A stretch of 64,000 nucleotides of DNA from Escherichia phage vB_EcoM_G9062: the sequence record NC_054920.1, one strand, 5' to 3'. The notes below the pieces were generated by a model that saw only the letters and a list, made by a program, of their open reading frames with translations, searched no databases and was not told the origin of the DNA. The translations under genes and the position numbers were made by a program. Positions 61,171-61,996 of the stretch are shown here, in pieces (positions within the stretch are counted from its first letter, which is position 1; every line of letters begins with the position of its first letter).

Positions 61171-61996
61171 ATGGCTACTTATGATAAAAATCTTTTTGCT
61201 AAATTGGAAAACCGCACTGGTTATTCTCAGACCAATGAAACTGAAATACTAAATCCTTATGTAAATTTCAATCATTATAAAAACAGTCAAATATTAGCTG
61301 ATGTATTAGTAGCTGAAAGCATTCAAATGCGAGGTGTAGAATGCTATTATGTTCCAAGAGAGTATGTTTCCCCTGATTTGATATTTGGCGAAGACTTAAA
61401 AAATAAATTTACTAAAGCTTGGAAATTCGCTGCATATTTAAATTCATTTGAAGGATATGAAGGAGCTAAATCGTTCTTTAGTAACTTTGGTATGCAAGTA
61501 CAGGATGAAGTTACTTTGTCCATTAATCCAAACTTGTTTAAACACCAAGTTAATGGAAAAGAACCGAAAGAAGGCGATTTGATATATTTTCCTATGGATA
61601 ACAGCTTATTTGAAATTAACTGGGTTGAACCATATGATCCATTTTATCAATTAGGTCAAAACGCTATTCGTAAAATTACAGCAGGTAAATTCATTTATTC
61701 TGGAGATAGGTCAAAACGCTATTCGTAAAATTACAGCAGGTAAATTCATTTATTCTGGAGAAGAAATTAATCCAGTTCTACAGAAAAATGAAGGAATTAA
61801 CATTCCAGAATTTAGTGAATTAGAACTAAATCCTGTTCGCAATCTTAACGGTATTCATGATATTAATATTGATCAATATGCTGAAGTAGATCAAATTAAT
61901 TCTGAAGCTAAAGAATATGTTGAACCTTATGTTGTTGTCAATAACAGAGGCAAATCTTTTGAATCTAGCCCATTTGATAATGATTTCATGGATTAA
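61171..61996 (+). pseudogene. 14: neck protein gene 14 disrupted by a 55-bp tandem duplication (frameshift; ORF stops at 61728)
   Basis: starts [20 protein letters not shown]; reading frame breaks at 61707 and ends ...SGDRSKRYS; deleting one repeat copy restores a 256-codon ORF ending ...NDFMD at 61996. Confidence 0.8.
61652..61761. repeat. perfect 55-bp tandem direct duplication (2 copies)
   Basis: taggtcaaaacgctattcgtaaaattacagcaggtaaattcatttattctggaga at 61652-61706 is repeated exactly at 61707-61761. Confidence 0.95.

Follow-up and report, generated by a model that had tools for sequence, protein, structure and literature searches.

Organization of the gene 14 locus

The window, by which we mean the whole 64-kb stretch of DNA analysed here, comes from a T4-like phage of the genus Tequatrovirus. 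Genes around the locus of interest are arranged in the order wac, 13, HNH homing-endonuclease gene, 14, 15, 16, 17, as in T6 and many relatives. The 1-kb region round the repeat described below matches 506 phage records, and the wider window is 97–99% identical to its nearest records (YUEEL01, ESh30 and G2540 among them), which makes it a distinct genome and not a copy of a listed record. The features at the locus are the following.

60357–61169, plus strand: HNH homing-endonuclease gene between genes 13 and 14 (270 aa; PF13395 HNH_4)
61171–61728, plus strand: gene 14 (neck protein gp14) as written, 185 codons comprising native residues 1–178 followed by DRSKRYS, with the stop codon at 61726–61728
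61652–61706, plus strand: copy 1 of the 55-nt unit (TAGGTCAAAACGCTATTCGTAAAATTACAGCAGGTAAATTCATTTATTCTGGAGA), spanning gp14 codons L161 (last 2 nt) to E179 (first 2 nt)
61707–61761, plus strand: copy 2 of the 55-nt unit, of the same sequence as copy 1 and directly abutting it
61762–61996, plus strand: rest of gene 14 (residues 179–256 and the stop codon at 61994–61996), now in the +1 frame and encoding the gp15-binding C-terminal arm
62038–62856, plus strand: gene 15 (tail sheath stabilizer/terminator), intact, 272 aa, whose product is the partner of the gp14 C-terminal arm

A 4-nt overlap joins the HNH gene to the stop of gene 13, and a single nucleotide separates its end from the ATG of gene 14. 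An identical HNH protein is found in T6, in phage G2540-3 and in several assemblies of metagenomes; relatives already have this gene annotated, and it is not new.

A perfect 55-nt tandem duplication inside gene 14

Tandem Repeats Finder places a 55-nt unit doubled head to tail at 61652–61761 (period 55, 2.0 copies, 100% matches, no indels, score 220). A pattern search recovered exactly two copies of the unit with 0 mismatches, with 0 expected in 100 shuffles. Together with a script that examined the ends of the repeat, these results bear out an earlier note on this DNA, made from the sequence alone, which had described two identical and adjacent 55-nt copies inside gene 14.

According to the script, the repeat can be extended in neither direction: position 61651 is T, whereas the unit ends in A, and position 61762 is A, whereas the unit begins with T. 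Since both flanking bases mismatch the unit, it is exactly 55 nt long and has microhomology at neither end. At the junction between the copies, TTCTGGAGA at the end of copy 1 is followed by TAGGTCAAAA at the start of copy 2; in another rendering of the junction, TTATTCTGGAGA is followed by TAGGTCAAAACG. This is the sole perfect tandem repeat in the 64-kb window. The window also holds an imperfect 24/48-nt tandem array (45836–45968, 71–81% matches) within the late baseplate/tail gene block, which resembles an ordinary in-frame repeat of a structural protein.

The 55 additional nucleotides shift the reading frame, and the ORF stops at 61726–61728 as the earlier note had it, so that gp14 is cut after native residue 178. 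The out-of-frame tail that the note described is also present, but its length of four codons has to be corrected: one hybrid codon, in which E179 is read as D, is followed by six foreign codons (RSKRYS). Beyond the repeat, the DNA at 61762–61996 is 100% identical to phage G2540-3, and this downstream out-of-frame part of gene 14 bears no sign of decay. Downstream of the stop we found no in-frame restart codon (ATG, GTG or TTG) before the penultimate codon of the gene. A downstream restart is accordingly rejected as a means of rescue, the first start codon in the correct frame being that penultimate codon itself.

Deletion of one copy in silico, done by script, yields a 256-codon ORF that ends with the stop at 61994–61996, and the expectation that a one-copy version would restore a gp14 of T4 length thus holds. 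The de-duplicated gene has the length of the 771-nt gene 14 of relatives and differs from that of phage G2540-3 at 0 nt. Aligned to T4 gp14 (PDB 9mkb), a check that the earlier note had suggested, its translation is identical at 255 of 256 amino acids. It matches PF11649 with E = 1.3e-138 over residues 4–250, compared to E = 3.8e-107 for gp14 as written, which covers only profile positions 4–182 of 278. An uninterrupted gp14 ORF of about 256 aa with its C-terminal arm is therefore absent from the sequence as written, and is present only once one copy has been removed.

Occurrence of the duplication in other sequences

The duplication appears to be private to this sequence, judging from nucleotide, junction and protein searches. 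With a 1001-nt query, the matches listed among the 506 related records each span 946 nt, which means that these listed relatives carry one copy. An 80-nt query centred on the junction gave an unbroken alignment in none of the matches listed among 333 records. Exact matches to the 46-nt junction numbered 0 in the IMG/VR viral contigs and 0 in the JGI metagenome contigs.

The neighbouring endonuclease gene gives a further view of the locus. We found the identical HNH protein encoded at 10 independent places (isolates, one metagenome contig from ENA, and sequencing runs assembled in Logan), and a 256-aa gp14 follows directly after it in all 10; the junction is absent from each of these 10 assemblies. 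In an exact-protein look-up, the truncated gp14 was not on record, whether read from the ATG or from an upstream TTG.

Other lesions and sequence quality in the window

Compared to YUEEL01, the 26-kb late-gene block (37954–64000) contains two indels only, an in-frame 12-nt indel in wac and the 55-nt insertion in gene 14. A generally poor, homopolymer-error-prone sequence is therefore rejected as a description of the late-gene region, which has one other indel, in frame, in 26 kb. The early-gene part has several 1–2-nt indels relative to YUEEL01, located between genes or at gene edges according to the YUEEL01 annotation. Across the 105 stop-to-stop ORFs of at least 90 codons that were compared, two annotated genes are broken, namely gene 14 and a small early gene near a nudix hydrolase gene. 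The sequence is thus of good quality on the whole, with no essential gene other than gene 14 affected.

The small early gene (33294–33778, minus strand) is broken in two where an A run near 33496 has lost 1 nt. It is a homolog of the 162-aa hypothetical protein APU02760.1 of YUEEL01 and adjoins the nudix hydrolase gene. All 12 best phage records, otherwise identical here, have the extra base at about 33496, and the deletion is therefore private to the window; either an error of the homopolymer consensus or a true mutation of a non-essential gene could account for it.

The wac (fibritin) gene (57954–59399) has an in-frame 12-nt deletion at about 58304 relative to both YUEEL01 and G2540-3, and encodes 481 aa instead of 485–487 aa. 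The exact 481-aa protein is not on record in a large protein/contig index, and the k-mer across the 12-nt junction is absent from viral_contigs.

Predicted consequence for the neck

In T4, residues 5–177 of gp14 form the N-terminal loop, a helix, the beta-barrel core and the stopper loop, which bind gp13 and gate the genome, while residues 178–256 are disordered before tail attachment (PMC12929587). The site at which the tail docks is formed by gp13 and gp14 in complex (PMC9958956). In the in situ structure, the gp14 arm embraces the gp15 ring; the neck–tail interface measures about 27,000 square angstroms, and five gp14 residues per subunit (D212, E220, D222, E227 and E233) form salt bridges with gp15 (PMC12929629). 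All five of these residues are encoded 3′ of the frameshift.

The arm is under strong purifying selection, given that 16 variable codons in an 11-sequence comparison translate into only 1 variable amino acid. For gene 14 overall, the 11 sequences have 72 variable codons and only 6 variable amino-acid positions. Such variation points to very strong purifying selection along the full length of gp14, also in the arm, which is disordered until the tail docks.

If the allele were real, it should produce sealed heads that are unable to join tails. As far as can be judged from the structures, the loss of arm residues 179–256 combined with the lack of a restart would make the allele lethal, and no lytic phage that propagates could then have it as its consensus. 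The position of the break, at residue 178 on the boundary between core and C-terminal arm, would also amount to a 'clean' domain truncation, and we regard this as a coincidence.

Origin of the duplication

We propose that the duplication is an untrimmed 55-nt assembler overlap that survived the joining of contig ends or a rotation of the genome, an explanation that the sequence features make very probable. T4-like genomes are circularly permuted and come out of a de Bruijn-graph assembler as a closed cycle, written as a linear contig whose first k bases equal its last k bases. For a SPAdes or metaSPAdes run ending at k = 55, the terminal overlap would be exactly 55 nt. Had neither copy been trimmed when the contig was made circular or was opened anew at the usual T4 start, the overlap would have become an internal perfect head-to-tail 55-nt repeat. 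Pasting two graph-adjacent contigs end to end would have the same outcome. The old contig ends would have fallen by chance inside gene 14, one of the two copies being the k=55 terminal overlap of the original contig. We infer both the assembler used and the untrimmed joining step.

Neighbouring contigs in a de Bruijn graph overlap by k, and metaSPAdes, like runs on shorter reads, ends by default at k = 55. The k series of SPAdes runs 21, 33, 55 and onwards (PMC8172020). SPAdes assembled the T4-like phage 132 into one contig with a 55-bp overlap, which was removed prior to re-opening of the genome (Roush et al. 2021, PMC8483715); a terminal overlap of 127 bp was described in another case (Philipson et al. 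2018, PMC5923482). The Phage Annotation Guide treats circularly permuted genomes and names apparent circularisation, repeats landing mid-sequence and frameshift assembly errors as common faults of deposited genomes (PMC8785237). PMC8172020 and PMC10627814 contain general statements only; neither explicitly describes k-mer duplications that lie internally once a genome has been rotated.

The decisive clue in favour of an artefact is the unit length, which equals the SPAdes k of 55, a standard final k. An artefact is also favoured because the copies are perfect and without flanking microhomology, because deletion of one of them gives back the exact wild type, as found in relatives, and because the duplication is private, being absent from independent sequences of the locus. 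The predicted effect of the lesion adds to this, since a block to head–tail joining would be incompatible with a propagating phage. The genome type, Tequatrovirus, is one that assembles as a circle. Furthermore, the window is co-linear with rIIA-started T4-type records and has the same orientation, with gene 14 lying about 29–32 kb further along in those records; this orientation and offset weakly support a record that was re-opened after assembly.

A genuine and very recent 55-bp tandem duplication, arising from a replication or recombination error in a defective genome that makes gp14(1–178), seems unlikely to us. The duplication is present in the sequence as given, and one of 55 nt is physically possible; about 500 bp upstream there is an HNH endonuclease gene, so that double-strand-break repair near this adjacent homing-endonuclease gene could perhaps have been its origin. 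The exact coincidence of its length with the SPAdes k of 55 speaks against such an event, as does the absence of the duplication from every other sequence examined. The endpoints also lack the short homology looked for in a duplication by slippage or illegitimate recombination, with no base shared on either side, which is weak evidence as homology-free end-joining is possible. In addition, T4 recombination should quickly resolve a 55-bp perfect direct repeat to a single copy. As to the product, the structured core (residues 5–177) would be kept and only the arm (178–256) lost, and the protein could plausibly fold, bind gp13 and seal the head without docking a tail. Loss of the gp15-binding arm should nonetheless abolish head–tail joining; a plaque-purified lytic phage could then not have this allele as its consensus, and the allele could persist only by complementation in a mixed population at high multiplicity. 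The more specific idea of a natural defective T4-like genotype, a complemented cheater in which truncation at residue 178 splits head sealing (gp13 binding and the stopper gate) from tail docking, is given a chance that is slim and a shade smaller still. The second private lesion, in a non-essential gene, could mean that the stock was accumulating mutations. We count the deletion near 33496 against the artefact reading, since a k-mer overlap does not explain every oddity of the sequence.

Two further explanations concern how the gene is read and how the record was made. A programmed or tolerated +1 ribosomal frameshift between 61655 and 61725 would give a full-length gp14 with an 18-residue internal repeat. 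The +1 frame is indeed open from 61655 to 61993, and an A-AAA-A run at codon K168 (61672) would allow tRNA-Lys to re-pair in that frame. This run is nevertheless the only candidate that we found, and it apparently corresponds to no recognised +1 motif. Programmed sites are conserved, yet the relatives examined have a continuous ORF and no duplication. About 18 residues of the product would be extra or scrambled, and they would fall within the core's last beta-strand region, which contains subunit and Hfq/gp15 interface positions (K173, I175). Spontaneous slippage would be much too inefficient to supply a protein of which every particle requires six copies. With a trivial A run as its only basis and a configuration seen in no relative examined, rescue by +1 frameshifting is rejected as practically negligible. 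A technical origin that is not specific to SPAdes, such as manual contig pasting, an error of a circularisation tool or a wrapped contig with a terminal direct repeat, would leave the same signature of a perfect, adjacent and private repeat whose reduction to one copy gives the wild type. We hold such a source to be very improbable as a separate cause; on these data it is indistinguishable from the untrimmed k = 55 overlap and forms a sub-variant of the same artefact verdict.

The earlier note had left three options side by side: a real knockout, a programmed or tolerated frameshift, and an assembly or sequencing artefact. The artefact is now strongly favoured, whereas the programmed frameshift finds no support, the ORF of relatives being uninterrupted. 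The earlier note's headline of a genome with a frameshifted essential gene is likewise unsupported as biology, in view of a length equal to k, a duplication that is private and the exact wild type that is restored. Gene 14 is almost certainly normal in the phage, and the duplication no real feature of it.

Implications and comparison with known systems

Our result is best taken as a data-quality flag: the record is probably too long by 55 bases, with an essential gene falsely split in two. Statistics on pangenomes, pseudogenes and genome length would inherit an error of this kind, and annotation would show it as a truncated 'neck protein' with an orphan ORF. Screening for perfect tandem repeats that lie internally and have a length of 55, 77, 99 or 127 would be a simple way to catch such errors. 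Should the duplication turn out to be real, for which we see little prospect, it would provide a natural truncation of gp14 at a domain boundary, useful for dissecting neck–tail docking.

Three known systems can be set beside the locus. The first is T4 gp14 itself (PF11649; PDB 9mkb, 9mof, 9x3o and 9lu4-7, with 9mkb and 9lu4 among its cryo-EM structures), with which the de-duplicated ORF shares its 256 aa and its place in the gene order 13, 14, 15. The T4 locus differs by the lack of the HNH insertion between genes 13 and 14, which is shared here with T6-type phages. The ORF as written also departs from T4 gp14, ending after residue 178 and 7 foreign residues without the gp15-binding arm.

Classical conditional-lethal mutants of T4 gene 14 make filled heads that do not join tails; their alleles are point nonsense or temperature-sensitive mutations and are kept on permissive hosts. 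The same phenotype, DNA-filled heads unable to attach tails, would be predicted here if the duplication were real. In contrast to those mutants, nothing in the window suggests a laboratory mutant, and the phage, at 97–99% identity to wild isolates, is not T4 itself.

The closest likeness is to the k-length overlaps left by SPAdes and metaSPAdes: the repeat is perfect, its length is the default k (55), the genome is of the circularly permuted T4-like type, and the true sequence returns when one copy is removed. Unlike in raw contigs, where the two copies stand at opposite ends, they are here adjacent and internal, and the extra step of joining or rotation without trimming would account for this difference.
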